Below are positions 1,853 through 23,566 of a stretch of DNA of 64,000 nt, one piece after another; position 1 is the first letter of the stretch; each line of letters opens with the position of its first letter. Where the stretch lies: NCBI RefSeq assembly GCF_003790525.1, contig NZ_CP033635.1. One strand, 5' to 3'. A program made the position numbers and the translations under genes. Source of the stretch: Escherichia coli. GTDB lineage: Bacteria; Pseudomonadota; Gammaproteobacteria; Enterobacterales; Enterobacteriaceae. The notes beneath the pieces were generated by a model, which made no database searches, had not been told where the DNA came from, and worked only from the letters and a program-made list of their open reading frames with translations.

Positions 1853-2707
1853 ATGGGAAATGGATGGCATGAATGGCCACTGGTTATCTTTACCGTATTG
1901 GGTCAATGCGTAGTAGGCGCGCTGATTGTTAGCGGAATTGGCTGGTTCGCCGCCAAAAATGACGCAGACCGTCAGCGTATTGTCCGTGGCATGTTTTTCC
2001 TCTGGCTGTTGATGGGCATCGGGTTTATTGCCTCTGTCATGCACCTGGGGTCGCCACTGCGGGCGTTTAACTCGCTGAATCGAATCGGAGATTCTGGTCT
2101 GAGTAACGAGATTGCTGCCGGTTCCATATTTTTTGCCGTTGGCGGATTATGGTGGCTGGTGGCAGTCATCGGTAAAATGCCGCAAGCGTTGGGGAAACTC
2201 TGGTTACTTGTCAGCATGGCGCTCGGCGTCATTTTCGTCTGGATGATGACCTGCGTGTATCAAATCGACACAGTGCCAACCTGGCATAACGGTTACACTA
2301 CGCTGGCTTTCTTCCTGACAGTATTGTTGAGCGGTCCAATACTTGCTGCCGCAATTCTGCGGGCAGCCCGCGTTACATTTAATACCACACCATTTGCCAT
2401 CATTAGCGTTCTGGCGCTGATCGCTTGTGCCGGGGTGATTGTGCTGCAAGGTTTGTCTCTGGCGTCTATTCACTCATCCGTACAACAAGCCAGCGCACTG
2501 GTACCAGATTACGCCTCCTTACAGGTCTGGCGTGTGGTATTGTTATGCGCAGGTCTAGGATGCTGGCTTTGTCCGCTCATTCGTCGCCGTGAACCTCACG
2601 TTGCCGGACTTGTTCTGGGGTTAATCCTCATTCTTGGCGGTGAAATGATCGGGCGTGTGCTCTTTTATGGCCTGCACATGACGGTAGGAATGGCTATTGC
2701 AGGTTAA
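1853..2707 (+). CDS. ynfH: DmsC-type membrane anchor subunit
   Basis: Track ORF 1613..2707 overlaps ynfG. The in-frame ATG at 1853, 2 nt after the ynfG stop, gives the 284-aa polytopic protein expected from K-12. Confidence 0.9.
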   Translation: MGNGWHEWPLVIFTVLGQCVVGALIVSGIGWFAAKNDADRQRIVRGMFFLWLLMGIGFIASVMHLGSPLRAFNSLNRIGDSGLSNEIAAGSIFFAVGGLWWLVAVIGKMPQALGKLWLLVSMALGVIFVWMMTCVYQIDTVPTWHNGYTTLAFFLTVLLSGPILAAAILRAARVTFNTTPFAIISVLALIACAGVIVLQGLSLASIHSSVQQASALVPDYASLQVWRVVLLCAGLGCWLCPLIRRREPHVAGLVLGLILILGGEMIGRVLFYGLHMTVGMAIAG

Positions 2708-2749
2708 CAAATTGGTGCGGGGCAACCCGCACATTTCAGGATGTTAGGA

Positions 2750-3364
2750 ATGACCCATTTTTCACAGCAAGATAATTTTTCTGTTGCGGCGCGCGTGTTG
2801 GGCGCGCTGTTTTATTACGCTCCAGAGAGTGCGGAAGCCGCCCCCCTGGTTGCGGCACTCACCCGTGACGGCTGGGAAACTCAGTGGCCTCTACCAGAAG
2901 AGTCATTAGCGCCGCTGGTGACTGCTTTTCAGACACAGAGTGAAGAGACTCACGCCCAGGCTTGGCAGCGTTTGTTTGTCGGCCCGTGGGCACTGCCGTC
3001 ACCGCCGTGGGGATCGGTCTGGCTGGATCGCGAATCTGTGCTGTTTGGCGATTCAACATTGGCACTTCGTCAGTGGATGCGCGAGAAAGGCATTCAGTTT
3101 GAAATGCAGCAAAACGAACCGGAAGATCATTTTGGTTCACTGCTGTTGATGGCTGCGTGGTTGGCGGAGAATGGTCGCCAGACAGAATGCGAAGAATTGC
3201 TGGCATGGCACCTTTTTCCGTGGTCAACACGTTTTCTTGACGTTTTTATCGAAAAAGCAGAACACCCTTTCTACTGTGCACTGGGTGAACTGGCTCGCTT
3301 AACGCTGGCGCAATGGCAATCACAACTGTTGATTCCTGTCGCGGTTAAACCACTCTTTCGATAG
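2750..3364 (+). CDS. dmsD: Tat-proofreading chaperone for DmsA/YnfE/YnfF
   Basis: Sequence MTHFSQQDNFSVAARVLGALFYY... matches remembered K-12 DmsD (204 aa). Track ORF starts 3 codons earlier. Confidence 0.9.
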   Translation: MTHFSQQDNFSVAARVLGALFYYAPESAEAAPLVAALTRDGWETQWPLPEESLAPLVTAFQTQSEETHAQAWQRLFVGPWALPSPPWGSVWLDRESVLFGDSTLALRQWMREKGIQFEMQQNEPEDHFGSLLLMAAWLAENGRQTECEELLAWHLFPWSTRFLDVFIEKAEHPFYCALGELARLTLAQWQSQLLIPVAVKPLFR

Positions 3365-3558
3365 GATCACCGTAATATTGCCGGATGGTGACGATTACGC
3401 GCGATTCGGCAATAATACGTTACAGTGTCACGTTTTTTTATCTCTTAAAGCACGCACTGCTTTTGCGGCTGGCCTCTTTTGCCGCAAAATAGTCGCCCGT
3501 GTTTCATTGCCCATTTCTGCTCATGCATCATCTACACATCTATCCGGATCTGAGCACT

Positions 3559-4815
3559 ATGTTCCGCCGTCTGCTTATCGCAACAGTCGTCGGTATTCTT
3601 GCGGCCTTTGCCGTTGCCGGGTTTCGTCATGCAATGCTGCTACTGGAGTGGTTGTTCCTCAATAATGACTCCGGCAGTCTGGTCAATGCAGCGACAAATC
3701 TTTCCCCATGGCGACGGTTGCTAACTCCGGCGCTCGGCGGACTGGCGGCGGGTTTGTTGCTGATGGGCTGGCAGAAATTTACCCAGCAACGCCCTCATGC
3801 GCCGACCGATTACATGGAAGCGTTGCAAACCGATGGTCAGTTCGATTACGCAGCAAGCCTGGTTAAATCGCTTGCCTCTCTGCTGGTAGTAACCAGCGGC
3901 AGTGCAATTGGTCGCGAAGGTGCGATGATTCTTTTAGCTGCCCTTGCCGCCTCCTGTTTTGCCCAACGTTTTACGCCACGCCAGGAGTGGAAATTATGGA
4001 TCGCCTGTGGAGCTGCGGCGGGAATGGCTGCGGCCTATCGAGCCCCGCTTGCTGGCAGTTTATTTATAGCCGAAGTGCTGTTTGGCACTATGATGTTGGC
4101 CTCTCTCGGCCCGGTGATTATTTCCGCCGTCGTGGCGTTGCTGGTTAGCAATCTGATTAATCATAGCGACGCGTTACTCTACAGCGTACAACTCTCAGTG
4201 ACGGTTCAGGCTCGTGACTATGCGCTGATTATCAGTACAGGTGTGCTGGCAGGTCTGTGCGGACCACTGTTGTTAACGTTAATGAACGCCTGTCATCGTG
4301 GATTTGTAAGTCTCAAACTTGCGCCGCCCTGGCAACTGGCACTGGGCGGGTTGATCGTGGGTCTGCTTTCCCTGTTCACACCTGCAGTGTGGGGCAACGG
4401 CTATAGCACCGTACAATCCTTTTTAACCGCCCCGCCACTGTTAATGATCATTGCCGGGATCTTCCTCTGTAAACTGTTTGCCGTGCTGGCGAGTAGTGGT
4501 TCTGGCGCGCCCGGTGGTGTCTTTACACCGACGCTATTTATCGGTCTTGCCATTGGCATGTTGTATGGTCGTAGCCTGGGATTATGGTTCCCTGATGGCG
4601 AAGAAATTACGCTTTTACTCGGATTGACCGGGATGGCGACACTATTGGCGGCAACCACGCACGCGCCGATTATGTCGACGTTGATGATATGTGAAATGAC
4701 CGGGGAGTATCAGCTACTCCCCGGTTTATTGATTGCCTGCGTAATTGCGTCGGTAATTTCGCGGACGTTACACCGTGACTCTATCTACCGCCAGCACACT
4801 GCGAAGCATAGCTAA
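3559..4815 (+). CDS. clcB: ClC-family voltage-gated chloride channel / H+:Cl- antiporter
   Basis: 418 aa from [11 protein letters not shown]..., with GSGIPE-like/GREG motifs and many TM segments. Track ORF has a 20-codon upstream extension. Confidence 0.9.
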
Positions 4816-5463
4816 GCGGATGTATTGCCCCAGTTCACGCTGTTCGGCGCGCGGCAGATAAGGCAGTTCACCAATGAGCGGTGCCGGAAGTTTTTTACCG
4901 AGCACATCAATGATTTCCGCATAATGCGCAAGTCCTGGGTTGATTCGGTTAGCCACCCAGCCAATGAGCGGCAGCCCGTCGTTGGCAATCGCCTGAGCTG
5001 TTAGCAGTGCATGGTTAATGCAACCTTCCTGAATACCGACAACCATCAACACCGGCAGTTGTTCCTGCACCACCCATTCAGAGAGCGGACGCAAATCATT
5101 CATCAGACTGCGCCAGCCGCCAGTCCCTTCTACCACGACATGATCGACTTTATCGGTCAGGTTTGCCAGGCCGTTTGAAATGAGGGTGTAATTGATTGGG
5201 CAACTGTGCGCCACGCTACTTTCTTCTTCGCTTAACGCGATAGGATTAACTGCTTCATAAGGCAGTTCGATGGTTGAAACACTCTGCAACACCAGGGCAT
5301 CTTTATTACGCAGCCCTTCGGGTGTCTCTTTGCTCCCCTTCGCTACGGGTTTATATCCCGCAACCGTTTTTCCCTGGGAGGCTAACGCTTGTAGCAATGC
5401 GCGGGAAACCACCGTTTTCCCTACAGAAGTGTCTGTACCGGTAATAAAGAAACGCTTCAGCAT
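4768..5463 (-). CDS. ynfK: Dethiobiotin synthetase paralog
   Basis: 231 aa from [17 protein letters not shown] (P-loop). 3' end overlaps the clcB 3' end by 48 nt, as in K-12. Confidence 0.9.
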
Positions 5464-18660: not shown

Positions 18661-18860
18661 CACCATCTCTCACTTTTACTACTCACTTTTTAAAGCGTCT
18701 CGCTTCGTCTCACTTGAGATTTTTGTGTTTTGTATGTGCATGTTTCATAAGTGTTTTTTCACTGCTCACTTTTGAGCATGTATACAGGTGAGAAAGTGAG
18801 TAATTGTGTTAATATTTTGTAAAAACCTCACCATTACTCACTTTTACTACTCACTTTTTA
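18661..18860. repeat. Putative origin of replication: CTCACTT iterons flanking an A/T-rich core
   Basis: CTCACTT at 18669, 18682, 18709, 18765, 18837 and 18850, with an inverted copy at 18794. 32-bp direct repeat at 18661..18692 and 18829..18860. Immediately 3' of the initiator gene. Confidence 0.7.
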
Positions 18861-20264
18861 CAGTGGTCCTACATCATCACCATCAATGTAAATCACGGCG
18901 TCTTTTTCCAGTTTGGCTAACCATCGCCGCATATTTTTCACGTCATACCCAAGCCGTTTCATGTCATCACGTAACAGCGGGATCGTGCACTTGTCGCCGT
19001 TCTGTGTGCGTGAACGGATGCACCCCCATAGCGCGGTATGGTTTTCCGTCTTGTTGCCTGCCTCCTCGATGCGCTCCAGTTCAGCAGGGGCGCGGGGAAC
19101 GTCAATCACCACCATGGACACAATTTCTTCGCCATCTGTATCGGTGAACACCTCCACGCTTTTAAGGTCGTATGCACTCTCTTTTGGCTCCTCTGCGTCC
19201 TTCATCTTCGTACACGCCGCAACCAGTGCTGTAACGTCTGAATTTTCCCTGCTGATTCGGTACTCTGCATCAAGCGCGGCACGGAATGCACTGGAACCAC
19301 GCGCCCCCTTTGTTTCATCCTTGCCGGAATGGTGAACCACCAGCACCGTGGCCCCTGTGGCCTGCTTTATCGCGTCACACCCCTGGATAAATGCGCCCAT
19401 ATCACGGGAATCATTTTCATCATTCCCACCAAAGCAACGGGCCAGCGTGTCGATCACAATCAGCCGCACATTTTCGCCCGTTCTGCTCTTAACAAGTCCG
19501 GCAGTCCTGATAACCTGCTCCACATAGTCAGGCGATGCAGGGAAAACAGGCGCGTTAATGATGCACAAATCTGTAACCACCTTGTCGTGGGTTATCTCCC
19601 ACGCCTTAACGCGGCGTTTTACGCCCATGCTGCCTTCACCAGCGATATAGATAACCGCACCCTTACTTACCCTGCGGCCTCCCCATGCCATACCTGTGGC
19701 AACATGGCACGACCAGGAAATGGCGAGGAACGATTTATAAGAACCGCTGGCCCCGTAGGTGCTGCATAATGACTCAGCCGGAATAAGCCCCTTAATGACG
19801 TAGCTTTGCTGCGCATCGAATCCCTCAGAACCCCATGAGATGGGAAGTGTGATTTTTCGCTTTCCGCCATTCATGACCAGGCTTTCCCCTCTCTCCCATG
19901 TTTCCCGTAGTCGTGGTAGCTGGTCGCTCCAGTCCTCCAGCAGTTCGAAATTTTCAGAAAGTAGCCGCGCCTCCTGGACTCCGGCGATCGCCAGTTTTGT
20001 GGCAATGGTCAGCATCTGCATATCGTCCAGGTTTCCGGCGCGTATGACCTTTACCCTGTATCGTCCTTCATCAACAATCTGTAAGTTGTCCAGTTCGCTT
20101 AACTGATAACGGCCCAGATAAACCGGAGGGATGGGATCGCCTGCTTTTTTGGCCTGTGCAATCATGTAATGTTCTGCAAAGGAGTGAGCATTATCACCCG
20201 CAAAAATAACCGCCTCAGTGTGTTTATCTTTCGGTAACAGTTTTACGTTCGGTGCAAGTTTCAT
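18858..20264 (-). CDS. Replication initiator, RecA/DnaB-like (AAA_25-type) ATPase with a C-terminal wHTH; Pri-Rep analogue
   Basis: 468 aa. Walker A GASGSYKS, Walker B LIVIDTLARCF, VLVVHHSGKDETKGARGSSA. Confidence 0.8.
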   Translation of the reverse strand: MKLAPNVKLLPKDKHTEAVIFAGDNAHSFAEHYMIAQAKKAGDPIPPVYLGRYQLSELDNLQIVDEGRYRVKVIRAGNLDDMQMLTIATKLAIAGVQEARLLSENFELLEDWSDQLPRLRETWERGESLVMNGGKRKITLPISWGSEGFDAQQSYVIKGLIPAESLCSTYGASGSYKSFLAISWSCHVATGMAWGGRRVSKGAVIYIAGEGSMGVKRRVKAWEITHDKVVTDLCIINAPVFPASPDYVEQVIRTAGLVKSRTGENVRLIVIDTLARCFGGNDENDSRDMGAFIQGCDAIKQATGATVLVVHHSGKDETKGARGSSAFRAALDAEYRISRENSDVTALVAACTKMKDAEEPKESAYDLKSVEVFTDTDGEEIVSMVVIDVPRAPAELERIEEAGNKTENHTALWGCIRSRTQNGDKCTIPLLRDDMKRLGYDVKNMRRWLAKLEKDAVIYIDGDDVGPL

Positions 20265-20553: not shown

Positions 20554-20781
20554 TTATTCTCCGGTGTGCTGTTCTTTATATCTGTCGTGAATTGCCATCA
20601 CTGTATTTAATTCATTAATAACAGCCGTTAATAGCGTACGCACGGCAGAAAACATCATTGAATCAGATTCATCGCCACTTTCCTGCACATCAATTAAATT
20701 AAGTAGTAATGCGTCCATTTCCTTTGCGCGGATTAATGCCTTTTCACAATGAAAAATAACACCAAAGGGTATTTTATTCAT
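20554..20781 (-). CDS. Hypothetical protein, 75 aa
   Basis: ATG at 20781 overlaps the icd-like stop (ATGAATAA). Track ORF starts 14 codons earlier. Confidence 0.55.
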   Translation of the reverse strand: MNKIPFGVIFHCEKALIRAKEMDALLLNLIDVQESGDESDSMMFSAVRTLLTAVINELNTVMAIHDRYKEQHTGE

Positions 20782-20971
20782 GACTCCCCTCCTGACGGAT
20801 ACGGGCGGCGAATACAGCGACACAACCGGACGGGCAACGGTTACGCGCTTCGCGTTCCGTCCAGGCGGTCACGTGGATAATTTGAGATTCTCCGGCACTC
20901 AGTGCCAGAAAACGCCACACAAAGGCGGTTTGTGTGTGCGCTAGTCGTGGGGTATGCTGTGTTCCAGCCAT
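20774..20971 (-). CDS. Icd-like (P4 host cell-division inhibitor-like) protein, 65 aa
   Basis: MAGTQHTPRLAHTQTAFVWRFLALSAGESQIIHVTAWTEREARNRC..VFAARIRQEG fits the remembered Icd-like pattern. aggag RBS. It forms the C-terminal part of the implausible 308-aa track ORF. Confidence 0.65.
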   Translation of the reverse strand: MAGTQHTPRLAHTQTAFVWRFLALSAGESQIIHVTAWTEREARNRCPSGCVAVFAARIRQEGSHE

Positions 20972-21056
20972 AATCGTTACTCCTGTTAACGGTTTGGTTA
21001 GACGCCCTGCATGTGTTACAGCACTGCGGGGCGTTGTCTTTTTAACGGCTTTCGTG

Positions 21057-21104
21057 ATAGGGTGTACACCTATCAAGCAAAAACATAACGCTATAGGTGT
21101 ACAC
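21057..21104. promoter_or_regulatory. Operator-like sites sharing TAGGTGTACAC in the divergent icd / RHH control region
   Basis: ATAGGGTGTACACCTAT (21057..21073, near-palindrome) and ATAGGTGTACAC (21093..21104, abutting the RHH ATG). The minus-strand TTGACA hexamer overlaps the RHH start. Confidence 0.5.
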
Positions 21105-21299
21105 ATGTCAACAGTTATTAAGCGAGATAAAAAACCAAAGGGAACAGGAAAAGCCCCCCCATTCCATATGCGAATAGCTCCAGAACTGAAAGAGCAGTTT
21201 GATAATGAGGCCAGCAATGATGGGGTAAGCCTAGCCAACTGGCTTAAAGAGTTGGGGCGCGCCGAACTAAAGCGACGCGGCATTGAACCTAAAGGCTGA
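21105..21299 (+). CDS. Ribbon-helix-helix (Arc/CopG/HicB-antitoxin-like) DNA-binding protein, 64 aa
   Basis: FHMRIAPELKEQFDNEASNDGVSLANWLKELGRAELKR is a typical RHH fold signature. Opposite strand to the rest of the island. Confidence 0.7.
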   Translation: MSTVIKRDKKPKGTGKAPPFHMRIAPELKEQFDNEASNDGVSLANWLKELGRAELKRRGIEPKG

Positions 21300-21302
21300 T
21301 GT

Positions 21303-21428
21303 ATGACTGAAAAGCAGACCGATAACAAACTTTCTCTACCAGAGAATAAACCAGCAGGCTTCTTACCAAGAAAAATCCTTGATGAGATCAAACGCCGCCA
21401 GCGCCGCAAGGCCAAAGAGCAGGAATAG
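21303..21428 (+). CDS. 41-aa basic micro-protein, co-oriented with the RHH gene
   Basis: ATG 4 nt after the RHH stop. MTEKQTDNKLSLPENKPAGFLPRKILDEIKRRQRRKAKEQE. Followed by a terminator. Confidence 0.4.
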   Translation: MTEKQTDNKLSLPENKPAGFLPRKILDEIKRRQRRKAKEQE

Positions 21429-21459
21429 CCCACCAGCAAGCCAGCACACTGATCACATT

Positions 21460-21488
21460 GGCCACCGTGACAGGTGGCCTTTTCTTTG
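21460..21488 (+). terminator. Rho-independent terminator of the RHH operon
   Basis: GGCCACC-gtgaca-GGTGGCC followed by TTTTCTTT. Confidence 0.7.
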
Positions 21489-21540
21489 CCCGTTATCCGG
21501 CAATTGTGGCGCTTCGCCACACGGTTGATATAATTCCCCT

Positions 21541-21611
21541 GCTCAGATTCATTTTTTGCGCGGCAGGTAAATTGTTCAGAAAGGCGGCTCCTTATCGGGG
21601 CCGCTTTTTTT
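21541..21611 (+). ncRNA. Candidate ~70-nt small RNA, antisense to the alpA-to-icd leader
   Basis: Extended -10 TGaTATAAT at 21526..21534. Hairpin plus T7 terminator at 21580..21611. No ORF. Confidence 0.3.
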
Positions 21612-21752
21612 ATGTCTGAAAAACCGCGATTTTGTTGTTTTTCAGTTTCACCAGGCCGAACGAAGCCCCGCCCATGTTCGGGCGTATATCCAGTCTTCAT
21701 GGTTAAATCTCTGTATTAGTGGATGGGTGGCGGCTGTGTGCCGCCAGTCTTT

Positions 21753-21941
21753 TTAGTGAACTGCCTCGCAGCTTTCCTTCCATGCCAGAACTTCGGATAA
21801 AGACCAGCCAACGGAACGACCGCCCAGCTTACGCCGTGATGGGAATTGTCCGGCCTTTTCCAGGCGGTAGCGGCATGAGCGGCTAAGGCCTGTTAGCTTT
21901 TCGCATTCTTTTTCACGTATAAAGCGATCAGTGCTTAACAC
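21753..21941 (-). CDS. alpA: AlpA-family (MerR-like HTH) phage regulatory / excision-control protein
   Basis: 62 aa, GTG start. REKECEKLTGLSRSCRYRLEKAGQFPSRRKLGGRSVGWSLSEVLAW is the AlpA signature. Confidence 0.8.
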   Translation of the reverse strand: MLSTDRFIREKECEKLTGLSRSCRYRLEKAGQFPSRRKLGGRSVGWSLSEVLAWKESCEAVH

Positions 21942-22100: not shown

Positions 22101-22133
22101 AAAGGCATAAAATCTCGTTTTATGCCTTTTTTC
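22101..22133 (+). terminator. Strong hairpin plus T-run in the int-alpA spacer
   Basis: AAAGGCATAAAA-tctcg-TTTTATGCCTTT followed by TTT. Confidence 0.55.
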
Positions 22134-22233: not shown

Positions 22234-22267
22234 TTGTTTCACGTTGTTGTGTATTGTTGCACGTTGT
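22234..22267 (-). repeat. Two more ACAACGTGNAACAA motifs (22234..22247 and 22254..22267), 20 bp apart
   Basis: Same 14-mer as in both arm modules (12410 and 23611), here in the opposite orientation just downstream of int. Confidence 0.5.
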
Positions 22268-22315: not shown

Positions 22316-23566
22316 TTATTTTCTTCTGGCTACTGGTAGCGTGGTTACGTTTTCATGTGCTCCCGCCAGTATCTCCAACCGCTCCACCCACATATCCAGC
22401 GCATTGCGTTTCGCATCCAGATAACGGGAATGATTATAAACTCGCTGCATTCCTGGCATCTGGTGGCCTGTAAGCTGCTCCACGACGTGAGGATCCACGC
22501 CTAAATCGTTCAGCATCGTTGTAAAGGTGCGCCGGATGTCATGCAGTGACCATTGAGGGTGTTTTAGCCTCCTGTGCGCTAATCTGCCGTACTGCGATAC
22601 GCTGGCCTCCTGTTTCACTTCCCCCAGTAATAAGCCCGTGTGCCTGTTCTGCTCCACCAGCCGCGTGACGAACGGCAGGATCGCTTCCGGTATGGGCCGG
22701 AATATTGCGACCTTCGTTTTGCTGTGCTCCTTCGGAACGGTCCAGAGCATTTCCGTGAAATCCCACTCCCCGATCTCCGATAACCTCAGTTCTACCGTCC
22801 TGGCTCCGAAGACAATCAGGAGGCGGATTAGTGCGACGTAGTAAGGGGAAAATATTTTTTTGTCCAGTGCCTGCAATAATTCGCCCAGTTCTTTGGTGCT
22901 TAAGACACGTTCGCTTATATCCGGTTTTTTCCCAACGTCCGCCACGTTCAGATCGTCCAGAACGTTGCTGATTGCATAGCGCCGCCTCCGGCAAAACTTA
23001 AGCGCCTGTTTGCACGCCTGTAGCACGAATCCGGCAGTAACAGGCGTTCGCTTTGCCACCCGATCAAAACAGGCCAGCCAGTGCCGTAGCTCGCATTTAT
23101 CCAGCGGCATAGCACCAATGTGCTGTATTACGTGATTATTAAGTCGCCTTTTCAGGGCGATATAATCCACGCGGTTTTCCTTTACGTAAGACTCAAGCCA
23201 GTAGGTGAGCGCATCTCCAACCGTTACAGGCTTTAACGCTTCCTGCATGGTGTAATTCATCTCATGACGTGGATTTTTCCCCTCAGCCAGCCATGCGCGA
23301 CACTGGGCGGCTTTTTCCCTGGCTGATTTCAGGCTCAGATCAGGATAATTTCCCAGCTTAATACGTTCCGGTCGTGTCTCTCTTCCCGTTCCGGCCCTGT
23401 AAGTGAAATACCAGGTTAAAAGGCCGCTGGTTGAATGCCTGACGCTCAGATTTCCACCGTCATTAAGAAAGGCTGTTTTTTGGGCGGGTGTGCCGTTGAT
23501 TTTCCTTAGCTGTGTATCGCTCAGCTTGTTAAGTGCTCTGGTCATAATTTTGAATCCGGTCATCAC
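22316..23566 (-). CDS. int: Tyrosine recombinase, P4-type integrase (N-terminal arm-binding domain plus catalytic domain)
   Basis: 416 aa. LSDTQLRK N-terminus, catalytic HDIRRTF...GHQ..MQRVYNHSRY. Alternative start at 23545. Confidence 0.9.
   Translation of the reverse strand: MMTGFKIMTRALNKLSDTQLRKINGTPAQKTAFLNDGGNLSVRHSTSGLLTWYFTYRAGTGRETRPERIKLGNYPDLSLKSAREKAAQCRAWLAEGKNPRHEMNYTMQEALKPVTVGDALTYWLESYVKENRVDYIALKRRLNNHVIQHIGAMPLDKCELRHWLACFDRVAKRTPVTAGFVLQACKQALKFCRRRRYAISNVLDDLNVADVGKKPDISERVLSTKELGELLQALDKKIFSPYYVALIRLLIVFGARTVELRLSEIGEWDFTEMLWTVPKEHSKTKVAIFRPIPEAILPFVTRLVEQNRHTGLLLGEVKQEASVSQYGRLAHRRLKHPQWSLHDIRRTFTTMLNDLGVDPHVVEQLTGHQMPGMQRVYNHSRYLDAKRNALDMWVERLEILAGAHENVTTLPVARRK

Follow-up and report, generated by a model that had tools for sequence, protein, structure and literature searches.

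A predicted control cassette with an Arc-like repressor and an antisense RNA in front of the icd-replication operon of an Escherichia coli phage-inducible chromosomal island

In a window of 64,000 nucleotides from Escherichia coli (NCBI RefSeq assembly GCF_003790525.1, contig NZ_CP033635.1), the interval from position 20972 to 21752 separates alpA from an icd-like gene that heads the replication operon of a phage-inducible chromosomal island (PICI). We consider it probable, with appreciable room for doubt, that this interval forms a control cassette complete in itself, by which the icd-replication operon is kept silent. Its central component is the gene for a small ribbon-helix-helix (RHH) protein, accompanied by two putative operators on a pair of opposed promoters and by a predicted antisense RNA that faces the icd start. 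Repression of the icd operon by the RHH protein is well supported by what we infer from comparison with related loci. This comparison covers approximately 65 RHH-encoding loci obtained in a scan of one genome per species and shows, as far as sequence conservation can tell, that most features of the cassette are under selection.

The RHH gene spans positions 21105-21299 of the plus strand and encodes a protein of 64 aa. A previous sequence-only reading of this DNA had proposed the open reading frame (ORF), and it is indeed present; E. coli CM2 has an identical annotated gene. When 5.8 billion proteins were searched, the product fell into a family of 61-64 aa with 28 clusters across the Enterobacterales, and in the orthologue from O157:H7 the differences are mostly synonymous in the plus frame. 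A profile of 24 homologues matches P22 Arc (1b28) with an E-value of 0.0018, aligning residues 12-59 with Arc residues 2-49 over 48 residues, and the PHROG entry 'Arc-like repressor' is matched with 6.9e-6. The AlphaFold model (pLDDT 80) has helices at residues 26-38 and 43-57, and its best Foldseek matches are the Arc structures 1myl and 1par, with TM values of 0.61-0.85. Note that the beta-strand is not formed in the model of the monomer, as is expected since the strand pairs only in the dimer. As judged from sequence and model, the 64-aa protein is an Arc-like ribbon-helix-helix repressor and not a HicB antitoxin.

The latter identity is the one given by the PGAP annotation, which names the protein a 'toxin-antitoxin system HicB family antitoxin', and a 2026 survey, in which RHH genes are still listed as accessory toxin-antitoxin cargo, puts the gene among the toxin-antitoxin modules of satellites (PMC13612085). 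The protein would then be the antitoxin of a type II pair, with a 41-aa peptide encoded behind it or another neighbour as the toxin. HicB antitoxins often end in an RHH DNA-binding domain, and this is the sole part that the protein resembles: the weak match to PF05534 (E 0.0045) covers only residues 20-48 and scores 17.3 bits against a cut-off of 21, the HicB N-terminal domain is missing, and a protein of 64 aa holds a DNA-binding domain only. There is no HicA on either side and no conserved downstream gene in about 60 loci; the conserved partners are the opposed promoter, the hairpin and the first gene of the operon. With Arc being the nearest match in sequence as well as in fold, we regard a HicB-type pair as very improbable. 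Family, profile and fold searches with the protein returned nothing like Stl, the repressor of Gram-positive islands, although no search was aimed at Stl or Rpr sequences themselves.

Homologues were also seen in other settings. A protein with 44% identity is encoded at 5016-5180 of OR544139.1, recorded as Pasteurella phage Pmp8, and the 15.3 kb of this 'phage' record are the size of a packaged Pasteurella PICI. Further homologues reside on 120 plasmids, some of them adjoining Icd-like genes.

Two putative operators lie just before the start of the RHH gene. O1 (21057-21073), delineated by repeat and comparison, is the near-palindrome ATAGGGTGTACACCTAT with the core GGTGTACACC at 21061-21070, and O2 (21093-21104) has the sequence ATAGGTGTACAC and abuts the RHH start codon. 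That two sites with a common sequence occur here had been claimed before and holds, as in the entire 64 kb an exact GGTGTACAC is present only at 21061-21070 and 21096-21104. The repeat finder returned a direct repeat, 21061-21076 and 21096-21111, as well as arms of 12 nt at 21062-21073 and 21093-21104 that are 100% complementary. Both sites are placed on promoters. The promoter of the icd operon, P(icd), is predicted on the minus strand at 21082-21111, with a -35 element TTGACA at 21111-21106, a spacer of 18 nt, a -10 element TATGTT at 21087-21082 and a start near position 21075; with 10 of 12 consensus positions it is the best promoter match in the interval. Its -35 element overlies codons 1-3 of the RHH gene, its spacer contains O2, and its -10 element is situated between O2 and O1. 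The minus-strand TTGACA over the RHH ATG, likewise part of the sequence-only reading, was found at the expected position and is retained in 59 of 61 distinct loci, because codon 2 (Ser2) of the RHH gene is TCA irrespective of whether the start is ATG, TTG or GTG, and in most loci it is followed by TAnnnT after 17-18 nt. On the plus strand, the RHH gene has a predicted promoter with an extended -10 element TGaTAGGGT (TGATAGGGT) at 21055-21063, a -35-like TTGTCT at 21034-21039 and a start near 21070. A TGnTAnnnT element is found between -66 and -34 before the RHH start in 45 of 61 loci, and in nearly all of these it begins at -46 to -50. The extended -10 overlaps the left arm of O1, and O1 thereby covers the -10 and the start of the RHH promoter while at the same time sitting at about +2 to +18 of the icd promoter. 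The two predicted starts are approximately 5 nt apart, the cores of the opposed promoters overlap, and a single pair of operators could shut both. The compact switch in front of the replication operon that had been envisaged thus stands in so far as the sites are located on a conserved promoter into this operon; it is not divergent, as the promoters are not arranged back-to-back but face each other and overlap.

The strongest evidence for binding of the RHH protein to these sites is comparative, in that two separated sequences change in concert with the residues that would read them. The 9-mer that immediately precedes the RHH start has an exact second copy at -40 to -44 in 42 of 65 loci. Across the 65 loci, the mean match of the O2 core to its own second site is 8.25 of 9 positions, as opposed to 5.9 of 9 between loci with different beta-strand motifs, and an exact cross-match between the latter was found in only 8 of 3010 comparisons. 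Eight classes of operator core can be distinguished, each paired with particular residues at the positions aligned to Gln9 and Asn11 of Arc, which are Pro19 and His21 in the window protein. The motif PPFHMRI goes with the core GGTGTACACC, PQFRMRI with GGTGACCACC, PQFKMRI with GGTGGCCACC, PTFQIRI with GGTACGTACC, PAFQ(I/V)RI with GGTGTGTACC, P(M/L)FNVR(I/L) with GGTATAGACC, PIFSVRL with GTATGGACC and PHFKMRI with GTGCCCCCC. The position aligned to Gln9 accordingly varies between P, A, Q, T, M, L, I and H and the one aligned to Asn11 between H, Q, R, K, N and S, while the arginine aligned to Arg13 of Arc is invariant among the RHH homologues. The class of the operator tracks the RHH motif and not the type of the first gene. 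The earlier proposal of a DNA-binding repressor with two cognate sites is borne out to the extent that operator sequence and beta-strand residues co-vary.

A second layer of control is suggested on the opposite side of the icd start. A promoter is predicted on the plus strand at 20930-20958, within codons 5-14 of icd, with a -35-like TTGTGT (20930-20935), a spacer of 17 nt and a -10 element TATGCT (20953-20958). It would give rise to a cis-antisense RNA of about 78 nt, which we term as-icd, that starts at A20966, 3 nt inside the icd ORF, and extends to approximately position 21043. The RNA covers the start codon, the ribosome site and the leader of icd with full complementarity. It is predicted to form a 5' stem-loop (20966-20999) with an anti-Shine-Dalgarno CUCC in the loop and a terminator hairpin (21001-21035) followed by UUGUCUUUUU. 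The sequence-only reading had overlooked as-icd, which by the comparison appears better supported than the RNA of about 70 nt that it proposed further upstream of icd and that is discussed below.

The plus-strand RNA of the 81-nt stretch 20966-21046 folds with -35.9 kcal/mol (z -5.7), the opposite strand with -22.5 kcal/mol (z -2.1). An alignment with MAFFT and RNAalifold gave a poor consensus for the leader hairpin (-2.2 kcal/mol), with stem families of unequal length being misaligned, and the analysis was therefore based on folding each sequence on both strands and on counting in-register pairs. The plus-strand form of the hairpin is the more stable one in 47 of 47 loci (mean -22.1 versus -15.7 kcal/mol), and G-U pairs number 129 in this form as compared with 24 in the minus-strand form. 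As evidenced by this strand-specific stability and the G-U count, the hairpin is not a structure of the icd mRNA leader. At least six unrelated stem sequences retain full pairing, with in-register double changes (for example, pair 2 is AU in 16, CG in 12 and GC in 4 cases; pair 4 is GC in 16 and CG in 14). The putative promoter is conserved in position as well: a TAnnnT is located exactly 16 nt before the C in the complement of the start codon of the first gene in 48 of 55 loci, with no more than 5 at any other offset, and this holds for Icd-like, SymE-like and unrelated 176-aa first genes alike. In the SymE-type relatives the hexamer is TAGAAT over the codons His5-Ser6, the position of the -10 element of K-12 symR. 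In E. coli K-12 a silent change of this element from CATTCT to CACTCC abolishes SymR (PMC1891008). The Rfam symR model (RF01809) matches positions 20966-21038 with 24.7 bits (E 0.11), far below the threshold of 61, and gave no match in the SymE-type relative L045. Because of this sub-threshold score we file as-icd as SymR-like in its predicted design and not as a member of the SymR family. At permissive thresholds, Rfam searches of the window and its relatives yielded nothing at gathering score and neither C4 nor isrK; models for isrD and leader peptides matched terminators only.

From these elements the following mechanism can be proposed. The RHH repressor, presumably as dimers, would bind at O1 to the 10-bp palindrome GGTGTACACC and at O2 to the copy of this palindrome. 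Occupying the spacer of P(icd) at O2 and the region just past its start at O1, it would prevent transcription of icd, DUF4222, the RepA helicase gene and those that follow, and as O1 covers the extended -10 of the RHH promoter, the repressor would also limit its own synthesis. Two promoters that stand face to face presumably could not both be occupied. Constitutively made as-icd would pair with the leader, ribosome site and start codon of any icd transcript that escapes, blocking its translation in the way SymR does for symE. Two plus-strand terminators and a seemingly strongly promoted RNA of about 70 nt would separate the cassette from alpA and oppose read-through from there. A link to alpA is speculative: transcription of alpA would meet no minus-strand terminator in the interval and could read antisense through the repressor gene into icd. 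Transcription starts, binding and repression are thus predictions throughout, as is any connection to induction by a helper phage.

The host element is a PICI of approximately 12 kb that is read on the minus strand. The first of its genes encodes the integrase (22316-23566) and is followed by alpA (21753-21941; Pfam Phage_AlpA, 5e-18), the upstream boundary of the interval. The icd-like gene (20780-20971; NCBIfam phage_ICD_like, 4.7e-18) is the first of an operon that continues with a 76-aa ORF, DUF4222 and the RepA-type helicase (18858-20264), with SSB and PerC further on; stops and starts overlap from icd to the helicase, and there is no gap after icd. The gene content of a Gram-negative PICI (int, alpA, icd, DUF4222 and RepA helicase) was detected in full within the window. 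An almost identical island in E. coli CM2, inserted in tqsA and adjoining pntBA, continues with SSB, PerC, capsid-like and head-decoration genes, and by gene content and by the CM2 layout the element is therefore a classical, EcCICFT073-like PICI. Of 5426 complete E. coli genomes, only 4-5 have the interval in exactly this version. Its composition is that of a mosaic, with the icd leader and the block next to alpA being widespread and the middle exchangeable.

Several points weigh against a repressor-based lock on the island. A distance of 35 bp between the centres of O1 and O2 does not correspond to whole turns of the helix, and this makes cooperative binding uncertain. The loci of the comparison are related by descent, and their counts overstate independence, a concern that is lessened by the eight operator classes and the at least six stem families. 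Only in 19 of 47 loci does the hairpin of as-icd precede a stretch of 8 nt with at least 5 T, and in some relatives the transcript may run on into the RHH gene. In the scan of the window alone, promoter-like sites were no more numerous than in shuffled sequences, for which reason the elements were judged by comparison with relatives. AlpA has been found to be both required and sufficient for induction of EcCICFT073 (PMC6092414), so that a repressor is not obviously needed. The label of an 'Stl analogue', finally, which the sequence-only reading had attached to the module, goes further than the evidence carries. The layout, with the RHH gene opposed to the icd-replication operon, does fit a repressor of the Stl type, and that it represses remains our inference.

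One could go as far as to attribute the repeats, hexamers and hairpins to chance in an AT-rich spacer, given that the number of promoter-like sites is the one expected from shuffling and that one-mismatch matches to the 9-mer of the sites are no commoner in the window than by chance. Against this, all elements are conserved in position across about 60 loci of many genera and are accompanied by co-variation, and we consider a chance origin to be extremely unlikely.

A more serious alternative accepts the same molecular mechanism and differs only in the biological role. The cassette might be a guard against a toxin and nothing else, a hybrid of a type I toxin-antitoxin system and a transcriptional repressor that silences a harmful first gene or stabilises the island, with derepression of the island being the task of AlpA alone. 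The sufficiency of AlpA in EcCICFT073 speaks for this, and so do loci of Citrobacter and Enterobacter (L045, L050, L062 and similar; approximately 2575-3200 and 3865-4151), in which the same RHH gene, operators and hairpin lie about 0.7 kb from tRNA-Sec (selC) and head a gene of the SymE family (PF08845, 8e-17), followed by Hcp and unrelated genes and devoid of replication genes. Depending on the locus, the first gene is Icd-like, SymE-like or codes for an unrelated 176-aa protein; what stays constant is the cassette together with the initial codons, approximately 8 in number. With the cassette guarding SymE genes in the absence of replication genes, its primary role may be toxin control. On the other hand, icd is followed by the replication genes without a gap, and shutting its promoter shuts replication unless there is an internal promoter; moreover, the cassette or a counterpart with a YlcI-type regulator occupies this slot in every E. 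coli island examined. On balance we think a function as toxin guard only is rather unlikely. The occurrence at SymE loci outside satellites means that the RHH cassette is apparently a mobile module that is not limited to satellites. In L062 (2695-2819) and L050 (2695-2838), both on the plus strand, there are sub-threshold matches (E 0.02-0.2) to Rfam IsrA, a small RNA (sRNA) of a Salmonella island; they lie within the SymE-like gene in antisense orientation, a short way upstream of the antisense promoter.

The YlcI-type counterpart provides an independent parallel. The regulators of these islands are assigned to the YlcI/YnfO family (NF041551) and, by their sequences, resemble a further small protein of the RHH type. 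The elements follow in the order seen in the window, namely hairpin, site, minus-strand -10, site and minus-strand -35 (GTCAAG, read as TTGAC on that strand). The regulator's own promoter has the site in yet another, third copy, and the sequence of the sites differs from island to island. The island of strain CFT073 (L087, 4250-5450) carries a YlcI/YnfO protein in the position of the RHH protein, repeated GGTGTGGCCCAC sites that flank a minus-strand promoter TTGACG / TATAGT, and a terminator-1 / TGATATAAT / terminator-2 unit downstream, as described below for the window. Judging from the strain, the roxA/pepT site, the P4-family primase, SSB and PerC, we take this island to be EcCICFT073. A capsid-forming island of O157:H7 next to roxA, with terminase, portal and capsid genes, carries the RHH cassette. 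In the E. coli island L083, a YlcI/YnfO gene (309-488) in the regulator slot is accompanied by a 59-aa paralogue of the RHH family (PPFQFRL...RGIEPKE; 994-1173) further along the same strand.

Neither part of the cassette is of a new kind: the repressor is of the Arc type and the antisense RNA of the SymR type, and their arrangement is much like that of phage immI regions. In P22, whose immI region has the repressors Arc and Mnt, the operator of Arc is found between the -35 and -10 elements of Pant, and the ribosome site of the controlled gene is the target of a short antisense RNA, sar, as it would be of as-icd here. The RHH profile aligns to Arc and the modelled fold matches Arc structures, and both systems would employ a small, self-regulating RHH repressor that reads DNA by its beta-strand. 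The window protein has only about 25% identity to Arc and an 18-residue basic N-terminal extension, and there are two separated palindromes of 10 bp rather than one operator of 21 bp. The repressor gene is opposed to the controlled operon, whereas in P22 it is the first gene of that operon, and the controlled genes are icd and replication genes instead of an antirepressor, in a satellite and not in a phage. In the immI region of P1 and P7, icd likewise heads an operon that is held down by a small antisense RNA, C4, encoded just upstream. C4 is processed from a leader on the same strand and acts in trans on repeated targets, whereas as-icd would be a cis-antisense RNA. A close likeness to as-icd is found in SymE/SymR of K-12, where an antisense promoter in the first codons of the toxin gene produces an RNA with two stem-loops that covers the start codon and the ribosome site (PMC1891008). 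The target in the window is Icd-like and not SymE, and a dedicated RHH repressor takes the place of LexA.

In Gram-positive islands (SaPIs), the gene for the master repressor Stl or Rpr is opposed to the replication operon (PMC6092414). The present cassette resembles this layout in that the gene of the putative repressor and the replication operon of the island run against each other. It differs in that the RHH gene is located downstream of int and alpA and not next to int on the strand of int, and in that the Gram-negative islands use AlpA as a required activator. Stl, furthermore, is a much larger protein of the helix-turn-helix type.

Two further ORFs of the interval bear on the question of which strand is coding. 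In line with the sequence-only reading, convincing coding sequences were found on the plus strand only, and an antisense frame of 308 codons (20774-21700, minus strand), in frame with icd, is considered a shadow ORF. An open frame of this length is unlikely in random sequence, PGAP annotates counterparts of 247 and 286 aa in O157:H7 and FORC_042, where it misses the RHH gene with its TTG start, and several differences in the first approximately 20 codons after the conserved ATG are synonymous. It could thus be argued that the long frame is the real gene and that the plus-strand ORFs are incidental. It has its third-codon positions in register with the ones of the RHH and 41-aa genes, however, and from these it inherits both its openness and the synonymous changes. 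Within the RHH gene it stays open in only 23 of 62 loci and is interrupted in 39, its length from the conserved ATG ranges from 71 to 308 codons among E. coli relatives, and its translation is rich in Cys, Ser and Arg, while the RHH product has a recognisable fold and co-varying operators. We therefore rejected the long frame as a gene and hold its reality to be highly unlikely. Long antisense annotations of the kind 'hypothetical' or 'Icd-like' across the cassette are those in L003 (3226-3969 on the minus strand, against 3332-3523 on the plus strand) and L086 (766-1626, minus strand), and pseudogene fragments of the frame are annotated in many genomes.

The second ORF, at 21303-21428 of the plus strand, is present as proposed earlier and encodes a basic protein of 41 aa with the tail EIKRRQRRKAKEQE. 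It is conserved as a separate ORF in L088, so far the one locus outside this type of island that has it, and is absent downstream of the RHH gene in about 60 others. Between the two copies there are 9 synonymous and 7 non-synonymous codon changes, distributed 4/5/12 over the codon positions. Family searches gave no match. By this pattern the 41-aa protein is probably the product of a real gene that represents optional cargo and not a partner of the RHH protein. YlcI/YnfO proteins end in the same basic tail. Several islands encode, after the regulator, a small basic protein of 41 or 57-58 aa (window 21303-21428, L088 792-1097, L087 4748-4921), and these proteins have an Arg/Lys-rich motif (KRRQRRKAKEQE / RKRRRRKIEHESE) in common with that C-terminal tail. 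The junction ...EPKG* TGATGT ATG is reused, which suggests modular recombination.

The part of the interval that adjoins alpA contains two plus-strand terminators. Terminator 1 (21460-21488), predicted earlier and confirmed by the scan, folds with -15.7 kcal/mol (z -3.2) and would end the RHH/41-aa transcript. Its stem occurs in three compensated versions (GGCCACC/GGTGGCC, GGCGACC/GGTCGCC and TGCGACC/GGTCGCA), each with a T-run on the plus strand. Behind it lies the putative promoter of a second small RNA (21506-21534), composed of an inverted repeat GTGGCGCTTCGCCAC at the -35 position (21506-21520) and the extended -10 element TGATATAAT (21526-21534), and this would lead to a non-coding RNA of about 70 nt (21541-21611) that ends at terminator 2 with its hairpin at 21583-21604 and seven T at 21605-21611. 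Both the extended -10 and the hairpin with its T-run ending at 21611 had been named in the sequence-only reading and are in place. TGATATAAT is invariant in 8 diverse islands, and terminator 2 likewise has compensated variants in which the plus-strand T-run is always kept. The predicted RNA of 71 nt folds with -27 kcal/mol (z -3.8), and the segment from terminator 1 to terminator 2 is found in 289 of 5426 E. coli genomes, including CFT073, with 81-100% identity and behind either type of regulator. These observations support a real non-coding unit as far as conservation of promoter and terminators can do so; of the antisense role that had been assigned to it, the only clue is its position opposite read-through from alpA. 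No Rfam family was matched at threshold, and for targets in trans within the island the best duplex outside the cis region, with -35.2 kcal/mol, equals the best one obtained with shuffled seeds (-35.1 kcal/mol). As to a ligand of the inverted repeat, L088 has another inverted repeat, TGGTCATTTCGACCA, in its place, and the window and CFT073 share GTGGCGCTTCGCCAC in spite of an RHH-type regulator in the former and a YlcI-type regulator in the latter, so that neither is an obvious candidate. A hydrophobic ORF of 53 aa on the plus strand (21458-21619), first suspected on account of an in-frame 12-nt indel, was dismissed: its start lies in the stem of terminator 1, it has no family match, and it is broken by a stop in 7 of 7 relatives.

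Downstream of alpA, the remaining block (21612-21752) has an inverted repeat TGGCGGCTGTGTGCCGCCA at 21728-21746, directly after the alpA stop and with a T-run on the plus strand, and includes the ATG of the shadow ORF at 21700. It is present in 957 E. coli genomes, and in the alignment its substitutions follow no clear codon periodicity. The block could be a target of AlpA or a promoter. On its minus strand a TATAAC-like hexamer precedes the conserved ATG at 21700. A search for motifs common to the upstream region of alpA and the icd promoter, as a possible AlpA site, gave only short repeats at chance level. The spacer between int and alpA contains, at 22101-22129 and 22234-22267, a perfect 12-bp hairpin (AAAGGCATAAAA / TTTTATGCCTTT) and the tandem repeats TTGTTTCACGTTGT / TTGTTGCACGTTGT. 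The Rfam int-alpA RNA (RF02996) is found in the relatives L010 and L067 and not in the window.

Whether a repressor exists in Gram-negative PICIs has been called unclear in the field (PMC6092414). Going beyond the control of a single operon, a joint reading is possible, which we put forward only tentatively: Gram-negative PICIs, both classical and capsid-forming, would have a master repressor after all, a swappable Arc-like RHH or YlcI/YnfO protein with island-specific operators on face-to-face promoters, supplemented by a SymR-like RNA and a second, convergent sRNA against read-through from alpA. AlpA, triggered by the helper, would override this lock by antisense transcription through the repressor gene, or a helper anti-repressor would do so, and the specificity classes would act like immunity groups that let several islands coexist in a cell. 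A search of the literature on PICI repressors, RHH and HicB proteins, YlcI/YnfO and the regulation of Icd yielded no description of this module in searchable papers, and its combination of parts, the operator specificity classes and the systematic presence at the head of the Gram-negative PICI replication operon were likewise not encountered in these papers.

The findings point to a problem of annotation, as the RHH gene is named a HicB antitoxin or listed as cargo and in O157:H7 remains uncalled because a spurious antisense ORF is called instead. The eight pairings of operator and beta-strand represent a natural specificity code for an Arc-like repressor and are usable for orthogonal genetic switches, and the predicted as-icd would extend control of the SymR type to Icd-like inhibitors of cell division. 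With the cassette, there may now be a concrete and testable candidate for the repressor that Gram-negative satellites were thought to lack.

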